Positions 4,283 through 53,142 of a stretch of 64,000 nucleotides of DNA are shown one piece after another. A program made the position numbers and the translations under genes. Where the stretch lies: NCBI GenBank assembly GCA_030693205.1, contig JAUYBG010000010.1:2059-66058 (forward strand), written 5' to 3'. The notes under the pieces are model-generated. The model had not been told where the DNA came from. It was given only the letters and a program-made list of their open reading frames with translations, and ran no database searches. Positions within the stretch are counted from its first letter, which is position 1. Each line of letters opens with the position of its first letter. The stretch comes from a bacterium (GTDB lineage: Bacteria > Patescibacteriota > Minisyncoccia > JAHIHE01).

Positions 4283-4912
4283 ATGATCAAGACTAATTTA
4301 TATAATCAAGAGGGAAAGGTAGTGGGAGAAATGGATCTGCCTGAGAATATTTTTGGACTGAAACCCAAGAAAGACTTGATGCACGAAGCGGTGGTCGCTC
4401 AAGAGGCGAATAGCCGGATAAAATACGCTCACACCAAGACCCGCGGAGAAGTACGCGGAGGCGGAAAAAAGCCATTTGCCCAGAAACACACGGGACAAGC
4501 CAGACAAGGTTCGATCAGGTCTCCGATTTGGAGGCATGGCGGAATAACTTTCGGTCCTACCGCTGACGCTTCCTATGGGAAAAAGATCAATTTGAAAAAG
4601 AAAAGATTGGCGTTGCATATGGCTCTGGCTTCCAAGCTGAACGATAAAGTCTTGTATATTATTGACGATCTGCGCCTTGCCGATGCCAAGACAAAAACTT
4701 TCGCTAAGATCCTGAAAAATCTCGGCGTAGCCAAGACTGCTTTGATCGCGCTGCCCAAGACGGATAAAAATGTCTATTTGGCCAGCCGCAATATTCCCGG
4801 AATAAAATCTATCCTAATCGGATCTTTGAATATAGTGGACGTATTGCGATACAAGAACTTGATAATGCCGAAAGAATCGATAGCCGCAATCGAGAAAACA
4901 TTTAAGATATAA
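4283..4912 (+). CDS. rplD: 50S ribosomal protein L4
   Basis: L4 motif AHTKTRGEVRGGGKKPFAQKHTGQAR and synteny. Confidence 0.95.
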   Translation: MIKTNLYNQEGKVVGEMDLPENIFGLKPKKDLMHEAVVAQEANSRIKYAHTKTRGEVRGGGKKPFAQKHTGQARQGSIRSPIWRHGGITFGPTADASYGKKINLKKKRLALHMALASKLNDKVLYIIDDLRLADAKTKTFAKILKNLGVAKTALIALPKTDKNVYLASRNIPGIKSILIGSLNIVDVLRYKNLIMPKESIAAIEKTFKI

Positions 4913-4928
4913 AATTCATTAAAAGCAT

Positions 4929-5327
4929 ATGACAATTCTTGATAAAGTTAAAAACATCGCCAAAAAACCGGAAGCGGAAAAGGCTGCAAAAGTTGAAAAG
5001 AAAAACGCCGGAAAGGATTTTAAGAAGAACAAGATATCGAAAGATAAGATCAGCGCGATTATTTTTGAGCCGCTTTTCACGGAAAAAATTTCCAATTTGA
5101 TGCCGTTGAATAAATATGCTTTCAAAGTGGCGAACGGAGCCAATAAGATTGAAGTGAAAAAAGCGATCGAAGGGCTTTATGAAGTGAATGTGACGAGCGT
5201 TAATATGATAAAAACCTCAGCTAAGCCGAAAAGAGTCGGAAGACGGGAAATGGTCAAGCCGGGATTTAAGAAAGCGATCGTGACGCTAAAAGCGGGCGAA
5301 AGCATCGAGCCGGCAAAGACCAAGTAA
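4929..5327 (+). CDS. rplW: 50S ribosomal protein L23 with a Lys-rich N-terminal extension
   Basis: Core sequence IFEPLFTEKISNL...KVANGANKIEVKKAIEGLY. Confidence 0.92.
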   Translation: MTILDKVKNIAKKPEAEKAAKVEKKNAGKDFKKNKISKDKISAIIFEPLFTEKISNLMPLNKYAFKVANGANKIEVKKAIEGLYEVNVTSVNMIKTSAKPKRVGRREMVKPGFKKAIVTLKAGESIEPAKTK

Positions 5328-5360
5328 AAAGTTTTAAAATTTTATTCACAGAGAAAGAAT

Positions 5361-6185
5361 ATGGCAATAATAGAATATAAACCAACAACCGCCGGAAGAA
5401 GAGGCGCGTCAGTGGTAAAAAATGATTTCGTAACGACAGCCAGGCCTGAAAAATCCTTGACGCTTGGTCACGCAAAAAAATCAGGACGGGCCAAAGGCAA
5501 GATCTCGACGCGGCACAAGGGCGGCGGAGCAAAAAGATTGTACAGGATCATTGATTTCGGACAGGATAAGGTCAATATTCCGGCCCGGGTCGCTTCGATC
5601 GAATATGATCCGAACCGCTCGGCTTATATCGCGCTTTTGAATTACAAAGACGGCGAAAAAAGATATATTTTGGCCCCGGAAGGATTGAGAGCGAATGATG
5701 AAGTTATCGCTTCGGCCAATGCTCCGGTAAAAACCGGCAACAGATTGATTTTGAAAAATATTCCGGTTGGCACCAATATACACAACATCGAACTGACTCC
5801 GGGAAAAGGCGGGCAGATCGTCCGCACGGCAGGCGCTTTGGCCATAGTAAGAGCCAAGGAAGGCGGCTATGTGCATCTCGGTTTTCCTTCAGGCGAAATA
5901 AGAATGCTCTCGGAATTATGCTGGGCTTCGGTCGGACAGATAGGCAAGGCGGAATTTCGGATGAGAAATTTGGGAAAGGCCGGAAAATCCCGATGGCTGG
6001 GCAAACGCCCGGGCGTGCGAGGTTCGGCGATGAATCCGGTTGACCATCCGCACGGCGGAGGCGAAGGACGCCAGCCGATCGGTTTGAAGCATCCGAAAAC
6101 TCCCTGGGGAAAGATCGCGATGGGAAAGAAAACTAGAAATAAGAAAAAATTATCAGAAAAATTTATTATTAAACACAGAAGATAA
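5361..6185 (+). CDS. rplB: 50S ribosomal protein L2
   Basis: [14 protein letters not shown] start, and the GRNxxGxITxRHKGGG-like [11 protein letters not shown] and [13 protein letters not shown] motifs. Confidence 0.96.
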
Positions 6186-6195
6186 AATAATTTAT

Positions 6196-6558
6196 ATGTC
6201 AAGAAGCACTAAAAAAGGTCCTTTTGTGGACGAAAAATTGATAAAGAAGATCGAGAAGCTGAAGATCGGCGACAAGACGGTTATTAAGACTTGGAGCAGA
6301 GATTCGACGGTTATTCCTCAAATGATCGGTTTTACGTTTGGCGTGCATAACGGCAAGACGCACATTCCTGTGCTGGTGACGGAAGATATGGTAGGCCACA
6401 AATTGGGCGAATTTTCTCTGACGCGCAAGTTTAGCCGGCACGGCGGAAGAATGCAGAGAGAACTCGAAGCGGCTGCCAAGGCGGCTGAAGCGGCCAAAAC
6501 CGCTCCGGCGGGCGCCGCAGCTCCGGCGGCCAAAGCTGCTGAACCGGTCAAGAAATAA
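6196..6558 (+). CDS. rpsS: 30S ribosomal protein S19 with an Ala/Lys-rich C-terminal tail
   Basis: [10 protein letters not shown]...[13 protein letters not shown] core. The tail reads [29 protein letters not shown]. Confidence 0.94.
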
Positions 6559-6592
6559 TAATTAAAGCAATATAAATTAGAAATTTTAAAAT

Positions 6593-7036
6593 ATGCCAGT
6601 AAAAGTTTACCTAAAAAATTTAAGAACAGCTCCCCGCAAAGTCCGGTTGGTTGCCGATCTCATCAGAGGATTAAGAGTTGATGAAGCGATGGAACAATTG
6701 AAATATATTCCCAAAAGAGCGGCTGTGCCTGTAATGAAACTCCTGGAATCGGCAGTGGCGGCGGCGGAGAATGATTTTAAAATGAAAAAAGAAGATCTGT
6801 TTATTTCAAAAATAACCGTTGATGACGGCGCGACCCTGAAAAGATCCATGCCGCACGCGATGGGCCGGGCTTTCCCGATATTGAAAAGAACGAGCACTGT
6901 CACTATCGAGCTCGATAAAAAAGCCGTAGAGCTGGAAGCGCTGGAAGAAAAAAAATCGGAAGAATCTCGGGAAGTTTTGGCAGGGGAAGCGAAAGAAGAA
7001 GCGCTGAAAAAAAGAAAAAGTAAAAAACAAGAATAA
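6593..7036 (+). CDS. rplV: 50S ribosomal protein L22 with a charged C-terminal extension
   Basis: Sequence LRTAPRKVRLVADLIRG...AMEQLKYIPKRAA. Confidence 0.93.
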   Translation: MPVKVYLKNLRTAPRKVRLVADLIRGLRVDEAMEQLKYIPKRAAVPVMKLLESAVAAAENDFKMKKEDLFISKITVDDGATLKRSMPHAMGRAFPILKRTSTVTIELDKKAVELEALEEKKSEESREVLAGEAKEEALKKRKSKKQE

Positions 7037-7057
7037 TTAATCCATTTTAAACTTGCT

Positions 7058-7750
7058 ATGGGACACAAAGTAAATCCGTTATTATTTAGACTAGGCTACA
7101 CTGTCAATTGGACGAGCCGCTGGTTTGGCGACAAAAACTTTCCGGAACTTCTGAAAGAAGATTTTGGCATTCGAAAGATCCTTATGGAAAATTTGAAAAA
7201 AGCGGCAGTGGAAAAAATTATCATCGACAGGGCGTCTAACGTTGTCACGATCTCCATTCTTTCCGCGAGGCCCGGAGTCATAATCGGACGGGGCGGAACC
7301 GGCATCGAGGATCTGAGAAAAATGCTGAAAACGAAGCTTGGATTGAAAAAAGAAGTTAAACTTGATGTGCTCGAAGTGAAAGATCCGGAATCCAGCGCGG
7401 CGATCATCGGGCAGGAAATTGCCAGTCAGATCGAGCGGAGGATCGGCTGGAAAAGAGCCCTGAAAAGAATGCTGGAAACGGTAATCAGCAAAAAAGGAGT
7501 TCAGGGAATAAAGATCGCGATCTCCGGGCGGCTTGATGGGGCGGAAATGGGCAGGCGAGAATGGCTCGCCAAAGGAAAAATTCCCTTGCACACGCTTCGA
7601 AGCAATATTGATTTTACCAGAGCGACGGCTTTTACGACTTATGGCGCGGTAGGGATAAAAGTTTGGGTGTATAAGGGCGAAGTGTTTGACGAAAAAGCGG
7701 AGGCGAAAAAAAGCAAAAAAATAAATAGTACTTCTACTCCAATTAAATAG
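7058..7750 (+). CDS. rpsC: 30S ribosomal protein S3
   Basis: [23 protein letters not shown] start and KH-domain region. Confidence 0.95.
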
Positions 7751-11806: not shown

Positions 11807-12352
11807 ATGGTTTTTAGAGACAAAAGAGAAAAAAGCGAATATGATCAAAAACTTCTGGAAGCTAGCCGCGTGGCTCGCGTGGTTAAAGGCGGAAAGCGCT
11901 TCAGTTTCAGGGCTTTGGTGATCATCGGAAACCGGAAAGGAAAAGTTGCAGTCGGAGTCGCTAAAGGCGCTGATCTTACCGATGCTACCCAGAAATCCGT
12001 GACCAATGCCAAAAAATCGATCATTGTCGTGCCGATTACGAATGGCAGCATTCCTCATGAAGTTTATCAGAAATATGGAGCAAGTATGGTTTTGATAAAA
12101 CCGGCTCCCAAAGGAAGCGGTATTATTGCCGGCGGAGCGGTTCGCACGATTTTGGAATTAGCCGGAGTGGCAAATGCTTCCGGTAAAATACTCGGCTCTA
12201 CTAATAAGCTGAATTGCGCGCGAGCGACAATAATCGCATTGGGAAAATTTAAGTCCAATACTCGCCCTGTCAATATGCAAGCCAAGAAAATCGCGGAAGC
12301 GCCGGCAAAAGAGGCAAAAGGCGTAACGGAAGAAAAAGCTAAAAGCAAATAA
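11807..12352 (+). CDS. rpsE: 30S ribosomal protein S5
   Basis: RVARVVKGGKRFSFRALVIIGN...GAGVIAGG pattern. It is followed directly by rplO, so there is no L30 gene. Confidence 0.94.
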   Translation: MVFRDKREKSEYDQKLLEASRVARVVKGGKRFSFRALVIIGNRKGKVAVGVAKGADLTDATQKSVTNAKKSIIVVPITNGSIPHEVYQKYGASMVLIKPAPKGSGIIAGGAVRTILELAGVANASGKILGSTNKLNCARATIIALGKFKSNTRPVNMQAKKIAEAPAKEAKGVTEEKAKSK

Positions 12353-12398
12353 TAAATAATATTATAGTTAAATTTTTGAGAAAGATAAGTTAAACTTT

Positions 12399-12821
12399 AT
12401 GCAAATTCACGAACTTACATTAAGCAAAAAAAGAAAAAGAGGGCAAAGAGTCGGCCGAGGCGGCAAGCGCGGCATTTATTCAGGCCGCGGCAATAAAGGC
12501 CAAAAAGCCCGAACAAATCACCGATTGAAATTAAAGAGGATCGGCTCCGGTTTGGCGCGCCATGTGCCGAAATTAGGCGGGTTTGTCAGTCTTAGCCCCC
12601 GATCAACCGCAGTTGATATTAAGAGATTAGAGGAAAAATTTTCCAACGGCGAATTGGTCACTCCTGTTTCGCTGAAAGCCAAGGGGATCATTAAGTCCAT
12701 TAAAAACCCCGTGAAAATCGTCGGAAATACCACACTTACTAAAAAATTTACAGTTAAAGATTGTCTGACAACCGTTTCTTCTAAAAAAAGCATAGAAAAA
12801 GCCGGGGGAATAATAAAATAA
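12399..12821 (+). CDS. rplO: 50S ribosomal protein L15
   Basis: MQIHELTLSKKRKRGQRVGRGGKRG start. Confidence 0.94.
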   Translation: MQIHELTLSKKRKRGQRVGRGGKRGIYSGRGNKGQKARTNHRLKLKRIGSGLARHVPKLGGFVSLSPRSTAVDIKRLEEKFSNGELVTPVSLKAKGIIKSIKNPVKIVGNTTLTKKFTVKDCLTTVSSKKSIEKAGGIIK

Positions 12822-12827
12822 TTATCA

Positions 12828-12935
12828 ATTTTCAATTTACAATGAATTTTCAATGAAATAATTTTCAAACAAAAGGTTTAAAAATTAAAGAATTAAAAAT
12901 TTAATAAAAATTAGAAATTAGAAATTGAAAATTTA
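12828..12935. repeat. AT-rich imperfect palindrome in the rplO-secY spacer (aattttcaattt / aaattgaaaatt arms)
   Basis: Arms are reverse complements, as seen in the sequence. Confidence 0.45.
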
Positions 12936-12942
12936 AATCCAT

Positions 12943-14214
12943 ATGTTTGATAAAATTTTAAAGATTTTTCAAATAAAAGAGCTTCGCAATAAGATTCTGT
13001 ATGTCCTGGGGATAATGATCGTTTTTCGGTTGGCTTCGCATTTTCCCGTACCGGGAGTCGATACTGAAAAATTGCGGGCTTTTTTTGAGAATAACCAGCT
13101 TTTTGGCTTGCTTAATTTATTTTCCGGAGGCGGACTTTCAAGCCTTTCAATCGTAATGCTTGGAGTGGGTCCGTATATCACCAGTTCCATTATTATGCAG
13201 CTTTTGACAATGATCTTCCCTTCTTTTAAGGAAATGTATCACGAGGGTGGAGAAGCGGGAAGGCAAAAATTTAATCAATATTCAAGAATTTTGACAGTGC
13301 CGTTGGCTTTGCTCCAGGGATATGGAATGATAAAATTATTTCAGAATCAGGGAGTTCTTGATATTATGAGCAATCAGACGATGATCTATACCTTGGTTGT
13401 GATTACCGCTGGAACAATATTTTTAATGTGGCTGGGAGAATTGATCACTGAACAAGGCATTGGAAATGGCATATCTTTGATAATTTTCGCCGGAATTGTT
13501 TCGCAAATGCCGGAAACAGCGATAGGGAAGCTTACTTTAATGGACGCGAGTCAGATCCCGGGATATATAATATTCTTGGTTTTTTCGGTATTAGTTGTCG
13601 CCAGCGTCGTTTTGGCCAACGAAGCCCAGAGAAATCTTCCCGTTTCTTACGCCAAAAGGGTGCGGGGCGGAAAAATGTACGGCGGGGTGAATACTTATTT
13701 GCCGCTGAAGGTAAATTCTGCCGGAATGATCCCGATAATTTTCGCGATGTCGATAATGCTTTTTCCCGGCATGATCGGTTCTTTTTTGGTTACATCCAAA
13801 TATCCCGCGGTCGCATCCGCCGCCGTTTACATTGTTGCATTGTTTGAAAATCAAACTTTTTATGGAGCGATGTATTTTATCATGGTAGTGTTGTTCACAT
13901 TTTTCTATACGGCGGTAGTTTTCGAACCGCATACGGTCAGCGAGAATTTGCAAAAACAAGGCGGTTTTATCCCGGGGATCAGGCCGGGAAATCCGACCAA
14001 GGAATATTTATCCTACGTGATCAACAGGATCACTTTGGCCGGCGCGGTTTTCTTGGGATTGATAGCGGTTTTGCCGTTTATCGGGCAAGCGTTCACGGGG
14101 GATACCAGCTTAGTATTGGGAGGCGCGGCGGTATTGATCGTCGTTGGCGTGGTGCTTGATACGGTCCGCCAGATCGAAGCGCAGATCGTAACCAAAGATT
14201 ACGAACAGTATTAA
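12943..14214 (+). CDS. secY: Preprotein translocase subunit SecY
   Basis: 423 aa with 10 TM segments, LRNKILYVLGIMIVFRL start and a GIGNG motif region. Confidence 0.95.
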   Translation: MFDKILKIFQIKELRNKILYVLGIMIVFRLASHFPVPGVDTEKLRAFFENNQLFGLLNLFSGGGLSSLSIVMLGVGPYITSSIIMQLLTMIFPSFKEMYHEGGEAGRQKFNQYSRILTVPLALLQGYGMIKLFQNQGVLDIMSNQTMIYTLVVITAGTIFLMWLGELITEQGIGNGISLIIFAGIVSQMPETAIGKLTLMDASQIPGYIIFLVFSVLVVASVVLANEAQRNLPVSYAKRVRGGKMYGGVNTYLPLKVNSAGMIPIIFAMSIMLFPGMIGSFLVTSKYPAVASAAVYIVALFENQTFYGAMYFIMVVLFTFFYTAVVFEPHTVSENLQKQGGFIPGIRPGNPTKEYLSYVINRITLAGAVFLGLIAVLPFIGQAFTGDTSLVLGGAAVLIVVGVVLDTVRQIEAQIVTKDYEQY

Positions 14215-14305
14215 ACGCAAGTTCAATAAAACCGTAAAAATATAAAGTTTTTATCAGGTTATTTAAAATTTTAATTTTATAATCTTAGGGATTTTATAAA
14301 ATCTT

Positions 14306-18396: not shown

Positions 18397-18687
18397 ATGA
18401 GTTTTATAGAAATTAATATAAATAATTCTTTTAATAAAAAAGAAAATCACGAAGTGGGAAAAAGTAGTATTCCTAATAAGTTTCCGATTCTAAATCAAAA
18501 TTTTAACAAAGTGAATACTGAAACTAATTCTCTGAGTGCAGTTTCTGTTACAAACAGTGCTTCGAGCGAATTAGTTAATAATTGGTTGAAGGGTATAAAA
18601 CCATCTATTATGAGAGATGTGCTTGTTGGAGCTACCAGTGCCACAATAGGTGCGATTATTACTTATTTAATTTTAGGTATCAAATAA
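18397..18687 (+). CDS. Hypothetical tail-anchored membrane protein (96 aa), AT-rich
   Basis: C-terminal hydrophobic helix VLVGATSATIGAIITYLILGI. The region is about 28% GC. Confidence 0.45.
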   Translation: MSFIEININNSFNKKENHEVGKSSIPNKFPILNQNFNKVNTETNSLSAVSVTNSASSELVNNWLKGIKPSIMRDVLVGATSATIGAIITYLILGIK

Positions 18688-18695
18688 TTAAAAGT

Positions 18696-19388
18696 ATGAA
18701 AAAAGAAATTAAAAAAATTCAAACAGCTATTTTTTATAAAAATTTCCAACTGGGAAATACCTACGATAAATCAAAAATTCTTCTAGAATTGAGAGAAAAA
18801 GTTGGAAGTATATTTGACGGCGAACCAATAATGTTTCCTATACCATTTGGTACGCCACCAGAAATTCCGAGAATTATTTTAAATAGTAAAGATGGAATTT
18901 ATTCATGCCATGTAGCGTTAGATAGAACCTATGTTTTTTATAACGCAACCGAAAATTTAGAAAACATAGATAGAGTATTAAGTAAACAAAAGGATAATTC
19001 TTTAAAATTATTTGATTTTTTAAAATCTAAAAATTCTATTATAAATAGGGTTGGTTTTATAATAGAATTTGAAATTACGATAGATGATGAAAATGGATCT
19101 GAATATTTAAAGAAAGAATTTTTTTTAGATAGTAAATTTACAGATCCAAAAGAGTTAACATTTAGATATAATAAAGCGGATAAAACTAAAGGTGAGACAG
19201 GAATGAATAATTTAATTACAGTTTTAGGAAAAGCTGATAGAGTGGTAAAAGTACAGTTAGATATTAATAGTATTGCTGAAACAATGGATAACTCTGATTT
19301 TACAAAAGAAAATTTTACGGAAATTATTGATTATGCAATTATTAAAATCCCACCAATATTAGAAAAATTTCCAATTTTTGAATTATAA
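18696..19388 (+). CDS. Hypothetical protein (231 aa; start moved to MKKEIKK)
   Basis: The ORF-track start at 18582 overlaps the previous gene. An ATG at 18696 sits immediately after the upstream stop. Confidence 0.5.
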   Translation: MKKEIKKIQTAIFYKNFQLGNTYDKSKILLELREKVGSIFDGEPIMFPIPFGTPPEIPRIILNSKDGIYSCHVALDRTYVFYNATENLENIDRVLSKQKDNSLKLFDFLKSKNSIINRVGFIIEFEITIDDENGSEYLKKEFFLDSKFTDPKELTFRYNKADKTKGETGMNNLITVLGKADRVVKVQLDINSIAETMDNSDFTKENFTEIIDYAIIKIPPILEKFPIFEL

Positions 19389-19393
19389 ATTTT

Positions 19394-19921
19394 ATGTCTA
19401 GGAATAATAAAAATAAACTTAAGCAAATTAAATCGGTTGAGACTGCGCAGGAAAATTTAGGTTCTTCTGCCGAAACACCAAAATCAGAAATGACTACTGT
19501 ATTAGAATTAGCCTCATCGGTAAATAAACACGAAGAGAGAATTAAAAACTTGGAAAAGGATATAAATAATCCAGAATGGGTACAAAAATTAGTTCATTCA
19601 CAATTATCCCAATCTCATATTATAAAGTTTATATTAATTATTTTTTTGATAATTTTATTATTCTCAACTCTTCTTTTTTATATTTTAATAATTTTTAAAA
19701 TAAATAATTTGATTACCATTTTTGAGTATATTAAAAATGATAAAGTTTTAAATATTGATAGTAAATTAATGGATAGTTTTAATCAATTATTTTATGAAAC
19801 AAAGATAACGGTTAATTTTATTGCTTACATTTTAGGAGGTATTACGACTGTTGGTATTTTGGGAATATTATTAAAAAAATTATTAGAAAAATTTATTGAA
19901 AATCTATCTATTAAAAAGTAA
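19394..19921 (+). CDS. Hypothetical membrane protein (175 aa)
   Basis: Two hydrophobic segments. AT-rich. Confidence 0.5.
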   Translation: MSRNNKNKLKQIKSVETAQENLGSSAETPKSEMTTVLELASSVNKHEERIKNLEKDINNPEWVQKLVHSQLSQSHIIKFILIIFLIILLFSTLLFYILIIFKINNLITIFEYIKNDKVLNIDSKLMDSFNQLFYETKITVNFIAYILGGITTVGILGILLKKLLEKFIENLSIKK

Positions 19922-49488: not shown

Positions 49489-50553
49489 TTACTTTTTCTT
49501 TTCCAGTTCTTTTCTCAAAGCATCAACAATATTTTCAATATGCCCTTCCAGGATTTTGTCGAGATCTTGCCAGCTTTGCTTGATGCGGTGATCGGTGACT
49601 CGATTTTGGGCGAAATTGTAGGTTCGGATCTTTTCACTGCGGTCGGCCGTGCCGATCTGCTCTTTTCTCATCGCCCGATCCTCAATTTCTTTTTTTTCTA
49701 TTTCCGCGGCAAGCAGACGGCTTCGCAAAACATTCAGAGCTTTTTCTTTGTTCTTGTGCTGGGATTTCTCGTCCTGGCATTTCACTACCAGTCCGGTGGG
49801 CAAGTGAGTAACTCTAATGGCGGATTCGGTTTTATTGACGTTTTGTCCGCCCGGACCGCCGGAACGGAATACGTCGAATTTCAAATCTTGAGGCCGGATG
49901 ACGACATCGGCTTCTTCGGCGTGCGGCAAAACCGCCACCGAAGCGGTGGAAGTATGGATTCGACCGGCTTTTTCAGTGGTGGGAATGCGCTGAACGCGAT
50001 GAACTCCGCTTTCGTATTTCATATAGCGATAGACATTTTCGCCGTTGATTTCAAAAGTGACGTCTTTGAATCCACCGCTGGCCGAAGCGCTGGAATCGAT
50101 CAATATCGGCTGCCAGCCGTTTTTTTCGGCATATTTGGTGTACATTCGGAATAAGTCAGCGGCAAAAAGCGCCGCTTCTTCGCCGCCGGTACCGGCTCGG
50201 ATCTCGACGATGGTGTCTCGGCTGTCGCGTGGGTCAGGCGGATTGATTTCGTCGGTCACTTCCGGTTCTAATTTATTTAGTTCTTTTTGAAGTTTTTTCA
50301 ACTCGTCTTCGGTCATTTTGATCAGGTCGTTGTCTTTTTCGGTTTTCAGGATTTCTTCGTTTTCTCGGATTTCGGTTTTGACTTTGGCCAATCGTTCCAT
50401 TTTTTTGATAGTTTCAGTGAGTTTTTTTTGTTTTTTCATCAGTTTCTGGGTTCTCTGGATATCAGAAAAAATCTCAGGGTTGCTGAGTTCAACGGTTAAT
50501 TTCTCGTATTCTGTTTTGAAGTTTTTTAAGACTTCGTCGTATTGAACTTCCAT
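49489..50553 (-). CDS. prfA: Peptide chain release factor 1
   Basis: GGQNVNKTESAIR (GGQ) and RIPTTEKAGRIHTS (PxT-type codon-recognition region, here PTT). Confidence 0.93.
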   Translation of the reverse strand: MEVQYDEVLKNFKTEYEKLTVELSNPEIFSDIQRTQKLMKKQKKLTETIKKMERLAKVKTEIRENEEILKTEKDNDLIKMTEDELKKLQKELNKLEPEVTDEINPPDPRDSRDTIVEIRAGTGGEEAALFAADLFRMYTKYAEKNGWQPILIDSSASASGGFKDVTFEINGENVYRYMKYESGVHRVQRIPTTEKAGRIHTSTASVAVLPHAEEADVVIRPQDLKFDVFRSGGPGGQNVNKTESAIRVTHLPTGLVVKCQDEKSQHKNKEKALNVLRSRLLAAEIEKKEIEDRAMRKEQIGTADRSEKIRTYNFAQNRVTDHRIKQSWQDLDKILEGHIENIVDALRKELEKKK

Positions 50554-50565
50554 GGTATTTTTGAT

Positions 50566-50670
50566 TTGTGCGATACTTGTTTGTCATTGCGAGGAGCCGA
50601 AGCGACGAAGCAATCTAAATTTAAGATTTGAGATTGCCACGCTCCTTTTAGTCGCTCGCAATGACAGACG
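50566..50670 (-). promoter_or_regulatory. Long nested hairpin in the prfA 5' leader
   Basis: 12-bp perfect arms TTGTCATTGCGAG / CTCGCAATGACA enclosing nested GCGAC/GTCGC and GCAATCT/AGATTGC stems. Confidence 0.4.
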
Positions 50671-50865
50671 AGGGCTTTTTAGCGCAAAAAATAGCATTGA
50701 ATATTTCGTTGTTCTATGCTATGTTTAATAGCGACAAGTAGTATTGTTATATCATAATTTGGCGAGGAAGACAAGTTTAAATGATATATAAAGATATTTT
50801 CGCATAATGACGAGTTAGGCGAAATTCATTTTTGGCCTAAACAAAATAATAAATAACTAAACACT

Positions 50866-51309
50866 ATGATTATCATTCACATCCTAATATCAATAGTATT
50901 CTACTTTATTTTAATGTATCTAAGCATAAATCTGTTAGGGCTGCTCGCGAGAGGATTCTTTACCAATCCAGAAATCGATAAATTAAAAACTGAAACTAAA
51001 CATGATTTTATTAAAGAGGAAATTAAAAAATCTGAACGTGCCGATAAATTGCTTAATGTAATCGCGTTTTTGGCAATTATTGGTTATCTTTATGCCACAT
51101 TTCATTTTTGGAATATAGGAGTTACTGCTGTTGCATTAGTATTGATGTTAGTAAGACTCCCTGCTTTGCTTTGGGAAATAAAAACAGGGCAACATCTTAA
51201 TCGTGTTGCTTCAGCTTTATCGATGCCCAAAAACGCTTTATATTACATCACCACTTTTTTAACTTTCGCAGCCCTACCAGCTTTATATTATTCCTTGTAT
51301 CGTTTTTAA
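50866..51309 (+). CDS. Hypothetical membrane protein (147 aa, 4 TM), AT-rich
   Basis: Hydrophobic helices. Low GC. Confidence 0.5.
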   Translation: MIIIHILISIVFYFILMYLSINLLGLLARGFFTNPEIDKLKTETKHDFIKEEIKKSERADKLLNVIAFLAIIGYLYATFHFWNIGVTAVALVLMLVRLPALLWEIKTGQHLNRVASALSMPKNALYYITTFLTFAALPALYYSLYRF

Positions 51310-51315
51310 AATAAA

Positions 51316-51909
51316 ATGATAATTTATTACAATAGTAAAGAAGAAAAATTACTTAAACAGCTCGAAAAAATGCACAGCAGTTCACAAAAAATTAACCTTA
51401 ACAATTCTATTGGTGAACTTAAATGTATTTTACTAGATAAGCCACATTATTTAACGAGTGTTCAAGTGAACAGGGACGGACTGCTCGGTTCATTAAGAAG
51501 GATTGAATGCGCTTATCGTTGGTGTGAAAAAGCGCCGTTAAATTACGAAGGATCTGACAAAAGAGAAGCGTTAACATTAGTTTTTTTTCATAATTCAAAA
51601 TGTTTCATAGAAATTTTAAAAAAGTGTTTTATAAAATTTAGTTCAAATAAAAAAAATAAAAAAGTATTTCATGAAATTACAACAATAAGAGATCTTTTTG
51701 CTCATTCATACGAAAAAGATTTTTTTGGAAAGAAAACTTTTATAAGAATTAATATTAATCATCAGTTTAACAAAGGTCTTTTTGAGTTAGAAGTTTTTAA
51801 TTTTGATACTTCAAAAAAAATATATGGGATATTTTTTTCTCTTTCAGTTTTTTTATCAGAGATAGAGGAATTAGTTAAAGAATTAATTAATCATATAAAG
51901 AAAAATTAG
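51316..51909 (+). CDS. Hypothetical protein (197 aa), AT-rich
   Basis: ORF only. Confidence 0.45.
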   Translation: MIIYYNSKEEKLLKQLEKMHSSSQKINLNNSIGELKCILLDKPHYLTSVQVNRDGLLGSLRRIECAYRWCEKAPLNYEGSDKREALTLVFFHNSKCFIEILKKCFIKFSSNKKNKKVFHEITTIRDLFAHSYEKDFFGKKTFIRININHQFNKGLFELEVFNFDTSKKIYGIFFSLSVFLSEIEELVKELINHIKKN

Positions 51910-51929
51910 ATGAGTTAATAAAGTCTATT

Positions 51930-52763
51930 ATGAACATAAAAACCCAAACCGCAAAAATCGCGATTTTTCAAAAAAAAGAAATTCGTAAAGTTATTTATAA
52001 AAACGAATGGTGGTTTGTAATTACTGATATTATTGTAGCGTTGACTGATTCTATTCAGCCGGAAGGATATATAAAAGATATGCGCCGCCGAGACGAAGAA
52101 CTTTCCAAAGGGTGGGGGCAAATTGCCACCCCCCTTAAGATACTTACAAAAGGCGGTTTGCAAAATATGAATTGCGCCAATACTGAAGGTATTTTCCGCA
52201 TAATTCAATCAATTCCTTCCCCTAAAGCCGAGCCATTCAAGCGTTGGCTGGCCAGAGTCGGTTATGAACGGGTAAAAGAAATCGAAGATCCGGAACTGGC
52301 CACCAAAAGAACCCGCGCGCTTTATAAAGCCAAAGGATATTCCAATGCATGGATCGAGAAAAGAATGCGCGGCATCGAAGTCCGCGAAACTTTGACCGAT
52401 GAATGGAACAAGCGGGGCGTAAAAGAAGGGCAGGAATACGCGATTTTAACCGCTGAAATTTCCCAAGCGGCTTTTGGAATGACGCCAAGCGAATACCAGA
52501 AATTCAAAGGCTTAAAAAGAGAGAATTTGCGGGATCATATGGATGATTTGGAATTGATATTTACCATGCTTGGCGAAGCTTCAACCACTGAAATCGCCAA
52601 GAATAAAAACGCTCAAGGTTTTGTCGAAAATAAAGTTGCCGCCATAAAAGGTGGAAGCGTGGCTGGCAAAGCGCGAAAAGATTTGGAGAAAAAAAGCGGC
52701 AAAAAAGTTTCAACTAAAGAAAATTATTTATTAAAAGCGGAAGATAAAAAAAGATTAAAATAA
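51930..52763 (+). CDS. Bro-N domain protein (phage antirepressor-like) with a KilA-C/DinD-like C-terminal region
   Basis: Matches Bro-N: NEWWFVITDIIVAL... resembles the PWFVAKDVAEAL-type segment, and KAEPFKRWLARV resembles EAKAFKRWV... Confidence 0.65.
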   Translation: MNIKTQTAKIAIFQKKEIRKVIYKNEWWFVITDIIVALTDSIQPEGYIKDMRRRDEELSKGWGQIATPLKILTKGGLQNMNCANTEGIFRIIQSIPSPKAEPFKRWLARVGYERVKEIEDPELATKRTRALYKAKGYSNAWIEKRMRGIEVRETLTDEWNKRGVKEGQEYAILTAEISQAAFGMTPSEYQKFKGLKRENLRDHMDDLELIFTMLGEASTTEIAKNKNAQGFVENKVAAIKGGSVAGKARKDLEKKSGKKVSTKENYLLKAEDKKRLK

Positions 52764-52824
52764 ACCAAAACAAAAATCGAGGTTTAACCCTCGATTTTAA
52801 AATATCTATATAAATTTTATGCGG

Positions 52825-53142
52825 TTAGACTTTCGCTTCAGTAACCGGTTCGGTTTTAGCTTTCGCAACTTCCGGTTTTTTAGCTTCAACTTTTTCAGCT
52901 TTCTTGCCGGTTTTTGCTTTTTTGGCTTTCGCTACTTTTGGTTTTTTCTTAGCCATTAATTTCTGGAATCTTTCAACTCGTCCGGTAGTATCAATGAGTT
53001 TCTTCTTGCCGGTATAGAACGGATGGCAAGATGAGCAAATTTCCACCAAAAGTTCCGGTTTGGTCGACATGGTTTCGAAGCTCGCTCCGCAAGCGCATTT
53101 TGCTATTGATTTGATATACTTAGGATGAATTTTCGGTTTCAT
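52825..53142 (-). CDS. rpmE: 50S ribosomal protein L31 (zinc-binding form) with a Lys/Ala-rich C-terminal tail
   Basis: MKPKIHPKY...CACG...[11 protein letters not shown]. Start trimmed from the ORF-track 53193 to the MKPKIHP ATG. Confidence 0.88.

Follow-up and report, generated by a model that had tools for sequence, protein, structure and literature searches.

The subject of this analysis is a 2.3-kb islet of three genes, here called gA, gB and gC, which separates prfA from rpmE in a bacterial genome of the candidate phyla radiation (CPR). The window, i.e., the whole stretch of DNA that was analysed, comprises 64,000 nucleotides (assembly GCA_030693205.1, contig JAUYBG010000010.1, positions 2,059 to 66,058 of the forward strand); coordinates given without a locus number refer to it, and loci from other genomes are numbered with the prefix L. 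An earlier note on this DNA had described a three-gene group between prfA and rpmE, and three open reading frames (ORFs) on the plus strand are confirmed there. The genes of the locus are as follows:

49489-50553, minus strand: prfA (release factor 1, RF1), conserved core gene on the left flank; Pfam PCRF 1.4e-69, RF-1 4.2e-43
50866-51309, plus strand: gA, 147 amino acids (aa), four predicted transmembrane (TM) segments; conserved family without annotation
51316-51909, plus strand: gB, 197 aa, rare protein, putative divergent HEPN (ApeA-like) RNase; 25% GC
51930-52763, plus strand: gC, 277 aa, DinD-like Bro-N protein; PADLOC candidate PDC-S13 / phrog_15286
51978-52253, plus strand: Bro-N domain of gC, residues 17-108; Pfam PF02498 4.8e-13
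52825-53142, minus strand: rpmE (ribosomal protein L31), conserved core gene on the right flank; Pfam Ribosomal_L31 7.1e-28

The spacers between the three genes measure 6 nt (gA-gB) and 20 nt (gB-gC), and the islet is flanked by prfA and prmC on one side and by rpmE, rpsB and tsf on the other. The earlier description of the group as AT-rich holds for gA (32.4% GC) and for gB (25.3%; among the 70 window ORFs with 100 aa or more, which average 40.5 ± 5.3%, a single one is lower), but not for gC, which at 40.6% is close to the window as a whole (39.7%). No paralogs of gA, gB or gC were found elsewhere within the window, and an Rfam scan of 49-54.5 kb gave nothing above threshold.

Gene order at the rpmE-prfA-prmC junction

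Relatives of PrfA were sought in one genome per species; the nearest are found in Patescibacteria, mostly Moraniibacteriota, with 50-56% identity. In L015, L017, L018, L019, L024 and L032, the last being a Marinimicrobia locus that shares the adjacency, rpmE and prfA occupy the same strand, with rpmE 100-400 bp upstream; prfA is then usually followed by prmC, and rpsB-tsf is divergent on the far side, which also holds for the window. In the latter, rpmE and prfA are split by 2.27 kb of opposite-strand genes. Since rpmE sits directly upstream of prfA-prmC in related Patescibacteria, the comparison of gene order identifies the gA-gB-gC region as an insertion into a conserved array, which supports the earlier proposal of a non-core module placed between conserved translation genes. 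That the islet genes might themselves be core genes was rejected in view of the diverse contexts of their homologs. The junction is occupied by other cargo in L016, i.e., a PQ-loop gene and a 90-aa gene on the opposite strand, and by a DUF1385 gene in L020, which is probably an old member of the operon. The exact gA-gB-gC arrangement was found again only in L105; this assembly is 100% identical and comes from the same organism, and its rpmE is called as 105 aa.

The gC protein and its family

The similarity of gC to Bro-N, an established DNA-binding superfamily (PMC8096241), which the earlier note had proposed from the letters, was upheld by profile search: Pfam PF02498 matches residues 17-108 over profile positions 1-91 of 96 with 50 bits (cut-off 25.6 bits; E 4.8e-13). 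Furthermore, gC matches the PADLOC profile of the single-gene phage-defence candidate (PDC) PDC-S13 end to end (residues 7-273 on profile positions 4-273 of 286; E 2e-112, 373 bits), and the PHROG family phrog_15286 with E 1e-87. We conclude from these profiles that gC can be assigned as a Bro-N protein and a member of the PDC-S13 candidate family. Weaker PHROG matches to anti-repressor families cover residues ~10-109 and thereby only Bro-N, while for the C-terminal half the matches are confined to PDC-S13, phrog_15286 and, at a weak level, DinD. A Pfam scan to E=1 returned Bro-N and a chance VHP match, and no ANT/KilAC domain; the assignment as a KilA-C-type protein is not borne out, nor is that as an antirepressor, there being neither such a domain nor a repressor or prophage partner. 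No nuclease domain or motif was detected with Pfam, PHROG, PADLOC or NCBIfam. In an AlphaFold2 (AF2) model built with 40 close homologs, the model confidence score pLDDT is 56 overall and ~80 for Bro-N, the sole part modelled with confidence; the C-terminal half is predicted to be all-helical. A Foldseek search of the model against the PDB found nothing significant (the top match, DdrC, has E 0.05 and is not trustworthy), and PDB sequence and profile searches with both gC and the gB family yielded chance matches only, to flavivirus NS5 and coiled coils.

The architecture of gC is that of DinD from E. coli (b3645; sequence taken from MG1655), an SOS-inducible protein of 274 aa with Bro-N at residues 10-105 and, like gC, a helical C-terminal half of ~170 aa. 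The two proteins share a weak C-terminal motif, KGLK..(L/I)xDHM..EL (BLASTP 26% identity over 85 aa, E 0.013), and several gC homologs carry the JGI label 'DNA-damage-inducible protein D'. However, gC fails the DinD equivalog model NCBIfam PRK11525, reaching 16.7 bits against a cut-off of 242 (E 0.0035) and matching in the C-terminal region only, and hhalign assigns the gC-DinD pair a probability of 1.5%. As judged from these comparisons, gC is DinD-like in architecture, not a DinD ortholog; no LexA/SOS context is evident for it, although no examination aimed at one was made. In the DinD literature that was found, DinD serves only as an SOS reporter; work by Uranga et al. from 2011 reportedly describes inhibition of RecA filaments by DinD, a function not transferable to gC on present evidence.

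A search with the gC protein returned at least 8000 homologs, of which the best 120 are 76-87% identical to it. In all of the ~90 gC-homolog loci that were compared with the window, gC is by far the best-conserved gene in common, the other shared genes being 31-56% identical. Between the window and L001, L004, L005 and L199, the nonsynonymous divergence (dN) of gC is 0.08-0.15 while synonymous sites are saturated (proportion of synonymous differences, pS, 0.68-0.78); the dN of PrfA at comparable or greater divergence is 0.40. Hence, gC is under unusually strong purifying selection and evolves several times slower than release factor 1, which is unusual for an accessory gene. Recent horizontal gene transfer alone was rejected as the cause of this conservation, because the synonymous sites are saturated.

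The family is at the same time highly mobile, because homology ends near the ORF and the neighbours are mostly singletons. Nucleotide similarity between gC loci extends from ~20 nt before the start codon to within ~15 nt of the stop codon (gC unit 51910-52777), and 245 of 327 proteins neighbouring gC homologs are singletons. About one fifth of 88 scanned adjacent proteins, a share given without an enrichment control, belong to restriction-modification (R-M) or CRISPR families; these include ResIII, type IIG enzymes, N6 and N4 methyltransferases, Cas1, Cas6e, RhuM and YhcG. Within CRISPR-Cas operons, the gC homologs sit directly upstream of the adaptation genes. Specific contexts of gC homologs are:

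L118 5071-8031 and L182 5220-8036: cas6e, gC, cas1, cas2; type I-E
L158 4822-9143: YhcG, gC, Fic, cas1, cas2
L190, Arcobacter cloacae pACLO, 4497-7270: cas4, gC, cas1b, cas2; type I-B
L004: EcoRI methyltransferase, GmrSD, Dcm and HATPase downstream of the gC homolog
L005: AAA_21-RloB upstream of the gC homolog, a 1583-aa nSTAND3 protein downstream

Embedding in defence loci (BREX, DISARM and type I R-M) is the basis on which the PDC families were nominated (Payne et al., bioRxiv 10.1101/2024.01.29.577857), and the presence of gC homologs in CRISPR-Cas and R-M loci is in agreement with that criterion. Unlike the embedded copies, gC of the window lies between ribosomal and translation genes. No mention of PDC-S13 was found in the literature searched. 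As applied to gC, 'defence' is a label taken from genomic context and does not name a function; the present data extend this context to CRISPR-Cas loci.

Homologs of gC are also carried by plasmids of Paracaedimonas (62% identity), Haliscomenobacter, Chlorohelix and Parabacteroides, and some of these plasmid copies lie beside ParB and IS66. This distribution has to be considered with an explanation in which gC is a selfish or regulatory mobilome gene, i.e., a DNA-binding transcription factor or a degenerate homing-endonuclease-like element, that spreads into intergenic sites including cas and R-M operons, with gA and gB as unrelated cargo. The end of locus homology within ~20 nt of the gC ORF would make the ORF alone the mobile unit, the insertion sites are highly diverse and include core operons, and Bro-N modules are often fused to GIY-YIG/T5orf172 homing nucleases (PMC8096241). 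We nevertheless consider this explanation unlikely: gC itself shows no sign of a nuclease, its purifying selection over saturated synonymous divergence argues for a function useful to the host, and its recurrent position just upstream of cas1 in two CRISPR subtypes fits the guilt-by-embedding logic behind validated systems.

The earlier note had suggested a prophage remnant, and in this account, extended to a satellite remnant, gC would be a leftover phage antirepressor that binds a phage repressor and was stranded with two phage morons when the element decayed. Bro-N is indeed typical of phage Ant/Bro proteins, phrog_15286 shows that viral datasets contain full-length relatives, the anti-repressor matches in PHROG run through Bro-N, IMG/VR holds 13 contigs with gC homologs of 43-59% identity, gA and gB are low in GC, and tRNA genes lie 3.7 kb from the islet. 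However, the phage Bro/Ant antirepressors share no more than Bro-N with gC, which lacks an ANT/KilAC domain and has neither a prophage nor a repressor or immunity region close by. No integrase, recombinase or phage structural ORFs are present in 47-56.5 kb, and neither att direct repeats nor phage structural or replication genes were found in or beside the islet. Among 50,697 phage records, gC is matched beyond Bro-N only in four unannotated metagenomic fragments of 4.8-7.1 kb, two of which cover more than 80% of gC; the only isolated phages with a match are two Clostridioides phages, and these match the Bro-N domain alone. Isolated phages are thus essentially devoid of the full-length family, which is commonly carried by chromosomes and plasmids, and the neighbours of at least 80 gC homologs are cellular, defence or plasmid genes. 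Together with the lack of any relatives of gA or gB in the IMG/VR, phage and plasmid collections, these data lead us to regard a prophage or satellite origin as very improbable.

Some further gC loci deserve description in their own right. L012, the Moraniibacteriota genome with the closest PrfA (56% identity), has no rpmE within 7 kb upstream of prfA, and carries, 3.3 kb downstream of prmC and beside a TspO gene, two tandem gC paralogs (12264-14294) that are 65% and 44% identical to gC. In L166 (2740-5262), a class-I release-factor gene (328 aa; PCRF, RF-1) has a gC homolog (66% identity) directly upstream and a second gC fragment (48%) after it; this second case of gC beside a release-factor gene may be a coincidence. 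In two unrelated genomes, an ORF of 42-43 aa overlaps the stop codon of the gC homolog by 4 nt (L001 5846-5974 and L004 5846-5977); one copy has a weak DpnI match, and the ORF is absent beside gC of the window.

The gB and gA families and their linkage to gC

The protein encoded by gB belongs to no family in Pfam, PHROGs, PADLOC or NCBIfam. It has five close homologs, and an exhaustive profile search of 1.84 billion (1.84e9) cluster representatives gave 41 matches. In an alignment of 31 family members, His130 and Lys134 are invariant and Arg125, Phe90, Phe91 and Asn93 nearly so, Arg125 being present in at least 90% of the members. These residues define a motif, (I/V)R(N/D)xxxHxYEK, that lies in a helix and in which R125-x4-H130 fits the signature Rx4-6H known from HEPN RNases. 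Pfam HEPN_Apea is matched by seven of the 31 members (best E 8e-4, below the curated threshold), though not by gB itself, and no other family recurs in more than two of them. One member, P0279 (401 aa), has a C-terminal extension that matches HEPN_AbiU2 with E 7.4e-5, and would combine, in tandem, a gB-like domain with a HEPN domain already known from abortive infection. The AF2 model of gB (pLDDT 83) consists of a helical-bundle core with an extra three-stranded sheet and a C-terminal helix.

With respect to genomic context, the gB homolog of L107 begins 19 bp after the type I R-M gene hsdS and also neighbours a gene for a 254-aa protein, while that of L106 is preceded by a gene for an 82-aa TM protein and followed by a RelB antitoxin gene. 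The motif, the sub-threshold HEPN_Apea matches, the AbiU2 fusion and the hsdS and RelB neighbours are features that the gB family has in common with HEPN toxins such as ApeA and AbiU2, and the modelled helical-bundle core may be another. gB differs from them in the extra sheet and C-terminal helix and in having no MNT-type antitoxin partner, and is much shorter than ApeA. On balance of these features, the odds that gB is a HEPN-like RNase toxin appear to us to be even.

No Pfam, PHROG, PADLOC or NCBIfam family accounts for gA either; its 176 homologs reach 89% identity and share the motifs LSxNLLGLxVRGLF, FHFWNIGV, RLPxLLWEIK and LPxLYYxLY. Their neighbours are, in L196-198, a large serine recombinase bordering a dnaX locus; in L192-195, an HNH protein and a helicase-nuclease of the UvrD/PDDEXK type; in L008, a coupling protein resembling TraG/VirD4; in L007, an FtsK-like ATPase; and in L009-011, a peptidase of family M20. 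Nucleotide identity between gA loci (76-89%) extends from 50805-50821, ~50 nt upstream of the ATG, to the stop codon. Judged by these neighbourhoods, gA is a putative mobile-element-associated membrane protein.

In L196-L198, the gA homologs stand back-to-back with a 436-aa large serine recombinase (L196 5497-6807), and a 1059-aa AAA_11/AAA_12/PLDc_2 helicase-nuclease comes next, right after dnaX. The region looks like the edge of an integrated element.

The linkage between the three genes was evaluated from their occurrence elsewhere. Homology breakpoints coincide with gene borders (gA unit 50805-51311, gC unit 51910-52777), the families differ widely in size (at least 8000 gC homologs, 41 gB clusters and 176 gA homologs), none of ~90 gC loci examined carries gB or gA, and gA homologs never adjoin gB or gC outside the present arrangement. 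Because the breakpoints lie at the borders, the partners do not co-occur in other loci and the families are orders of magnitude apart in size, we take the islet to hold mostly three separate genes, and the earlier idea of one functional cassette is not supported: the genes occur apart elsewhere with different neighbours, and only the gB-gC junction recurs, once, in L106.

At that junction, L106 792-1830 and the window (51304-52002) are ~90% identical at the nucleotide level over gB, the spacer that follows it and the ~24 initial codons of gC, with a synonymous divergence (dS) of 0.18 for gB; thereafter the sequence of L106 switches abruptly to the RelB gene, and gB is intact. Since L106 keeps gB, the spacer and the start of gC at this level of identity, gB and gC must have reached this lineage as a pair. 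The gC copy of L106 was destroyed by insertion of a toxin-antitoxin (TA) module, leaving gB intact without gC, which argues against gC being required for the control of gB. Such sites behave like small accretion points for defence or TA genes.

These data also bear on an explanation in which gB and gC, possibly joined by gA, make up a single new abortive-infection system of several genes, where gC would sense phage DNA or protein via Bro-N and release or activate the HEPN RNase gB, with gA as a membrane anchor or effector. It is consistent with the operon-like packing, with the HEPN-like motif of gB, with the conservation of the gB-gC junction in the independent contig L106, and with the small membrane-protein gene that precedes gB there as well. 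However, the disparity between the gC and gB families and the complete lack of gB and gA from the examined gC loci do not lend support to a fixed system; furthermore, the gB homolog of L107 stands without gC, that of L106 does not need it, and gA homologs keep apart from both. We therefore consider a single system decidedly unlikely.

Interpretation and edges of the islet

The reading that we favour, and hold to be probable, is that the locus is a mosaic islet of three independently mobile, probably defence-related genes, lodged at the rpmE-prfA-prmC junction of a CPR genome near Moraniibacteriota, and not one fixed system. The abortive-infection-like or defence flavour that the earlier note had sensed is plausible in this light, with gC matching PDC-S13 and gB being HEPN-like and located beside hsdS and RelB in its homologs. 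In common with defence islands and hotspots, the junction holds variable accessory genes of defence type between core genes, with different cargo in L016 and a TA insertion in L106. Unlike these, the islet is tiny (three genes in 2.3 kb) and has no recombinase, no tRNA or att site and no canonical defence system.

Several observations weigh against this assignment. With respect to context, the R-M and CRISPR share among gC neighbours is uncontrolled for enrichment; gC homologs also have housekeeping neighbours, such as dnaN/MFS (L199), pyk/ppdk (L001, L004, L005), MetRS and glycosyltransferases; gC of the window, flanked by prfA and rpmE, adjoins no recognised defence system; and neither a recombinase nor a target-site duplication was found at the islet. 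The 145 PDCs were released explicitly as untested candidates (10.1101/2024.01.29.577857). As for the proteins, the similarity between gC and DinD is marginal, and the C-terminal half of gC has a pLDDT below 50, such that any activity placed there is a guess. The gB family has only isolated weak matches in PADLOC and reaches no curated HEPN threshold; fold searches with gB against the PDB and BFVD found nothing significant, the best HEPN toxin match being 7ae8_B at rank 30 (TM-score 0.41-0.52); and no conserved antitoxin adjoins gB, the neighbours differing in all three contexts available (window, L106 and L107).

If the favoured reading of a mosaic islet holds, a mechanism can be outlined as follows. 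The Bro-N domain of gC would bind DNA or nucleoprotein of an invading element, and the conserved C-terminal domain might oligomerise or act on a partner in DNA metabolism, by analogy with DinD on RecA filaments; the outcome would be interference with the replication or recombination of a phage or mobile element. gB, having travelled to the locus together with gC, could serve as a HEPN RNase, i.e., a toxic or abortive-infection effector that arrests growth once activated. Any anti-phage activity, the RNase activity of gB and the molecular target of gC are predictions of this outline.

A bolder version would make the PDC-S13/DinD-like Bro-N family a widespread, extremely constrained single-gene immune or immune-regulatory module that has repeatedly settled just upstream of cas1 (types I-E and I-B) as well as within core operons of very small CPR genomes, and that couples Bro-N sensing of DNA or nucleoprotein to the control of recombination or spacer acquisition, having here recruited the HEPN-like gB as a partner. 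We regard this version as a long shot.

Should the mosaic-islet reading be right, a CPR bacterium with a small genome and a presumed dependence on a host cell maintains several stand-alone immunity-type genes, compactly stacked, inside an essential translation operon. Conservation in the PDC-S13/DinD-like family far exceeds that of release factor 1, and yet the family moves between unrelated sites; its repeated position between CRISPR-Cas interference and adaptation modules makes it a good candidate for experiment, while gB would define a rare, unannotated HEPN-like family of ~41 clusters. Both leads leave current concepts unchanged; what they contribute is further members and context for known kinds, namely Bro-N proteins, HEPN toxins and defence islets.

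The edges of the islet carry the following features:

50572-50676, no strand assigned: GC-rich imperfect palindrome of ~105 nt at the insertion's left edge, within the leader of prfA; from inverted repeat search and RNA fold
50784-50800, no strand assigned: left arm of a weak 17-nt inverted match, overlapping a weak promoter-like site for gA (50781-50808)
50805-50865, plus strand: conserved region upstream of gA that travels with gA, from nucleotide similarity (83-89% identity) to gA loci elsewhere
52773-52798, no strand assigned: hairpin terminator between the convergent gC and rpmE, with a 10-bp stem and a T-run on the minus strand
52799-52815, no strand assigned: right arm of the weak 17-nt inverted match, pairing with 50784-50800

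Flanking direct repeats or att sites, for which the earlier note had advised a search, were not found around the islet, the best direct match being 12/15; the search returned only the weak inverted match (15/17), which brackets the three genes and is reached by 2 of 300 shuffles. It is given little weight and is not taken as a terminal inverted repeat, both arms being AT-rich and adjacent to a promoter or terminator. The hairpin at 52773-52798 is most likely the rpmE terminator; it falls outside the gC unit, whose nucleotide homology stops at 52777 or earlier.

The palindrome, GTCATTGCGAGGAGCCGAAGCGACGAAGCAATC ... GATTGCCACGC...GCTCGCAATGAC, lies upstream of prfA, 19 nt from its start codon, and occurs only once in the window; its RNA fold has an energy of -42.8 kcal/mol (z -4.87). 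Related copies occur in L171/L172, where one lies 72 nt downstream of a gC homolog and L172 has another 2 kb further on, and also in L186. The palindrome resembles dispersed elements of the repetitive extragenic palindromic (REP) or miniature inverted-repeat transposable element (MITE) type, and would mark variable regions.

Elsewhere in the window, two adjacent ORFs of 268 and 175 aa (18582-19388 and 19394-19921) are very AT-rich, with 25.9% and 22.3% GC, respectively, the latter being the lowest in the window, and match no Pfam family; the pair may represent a second small foreign islet.

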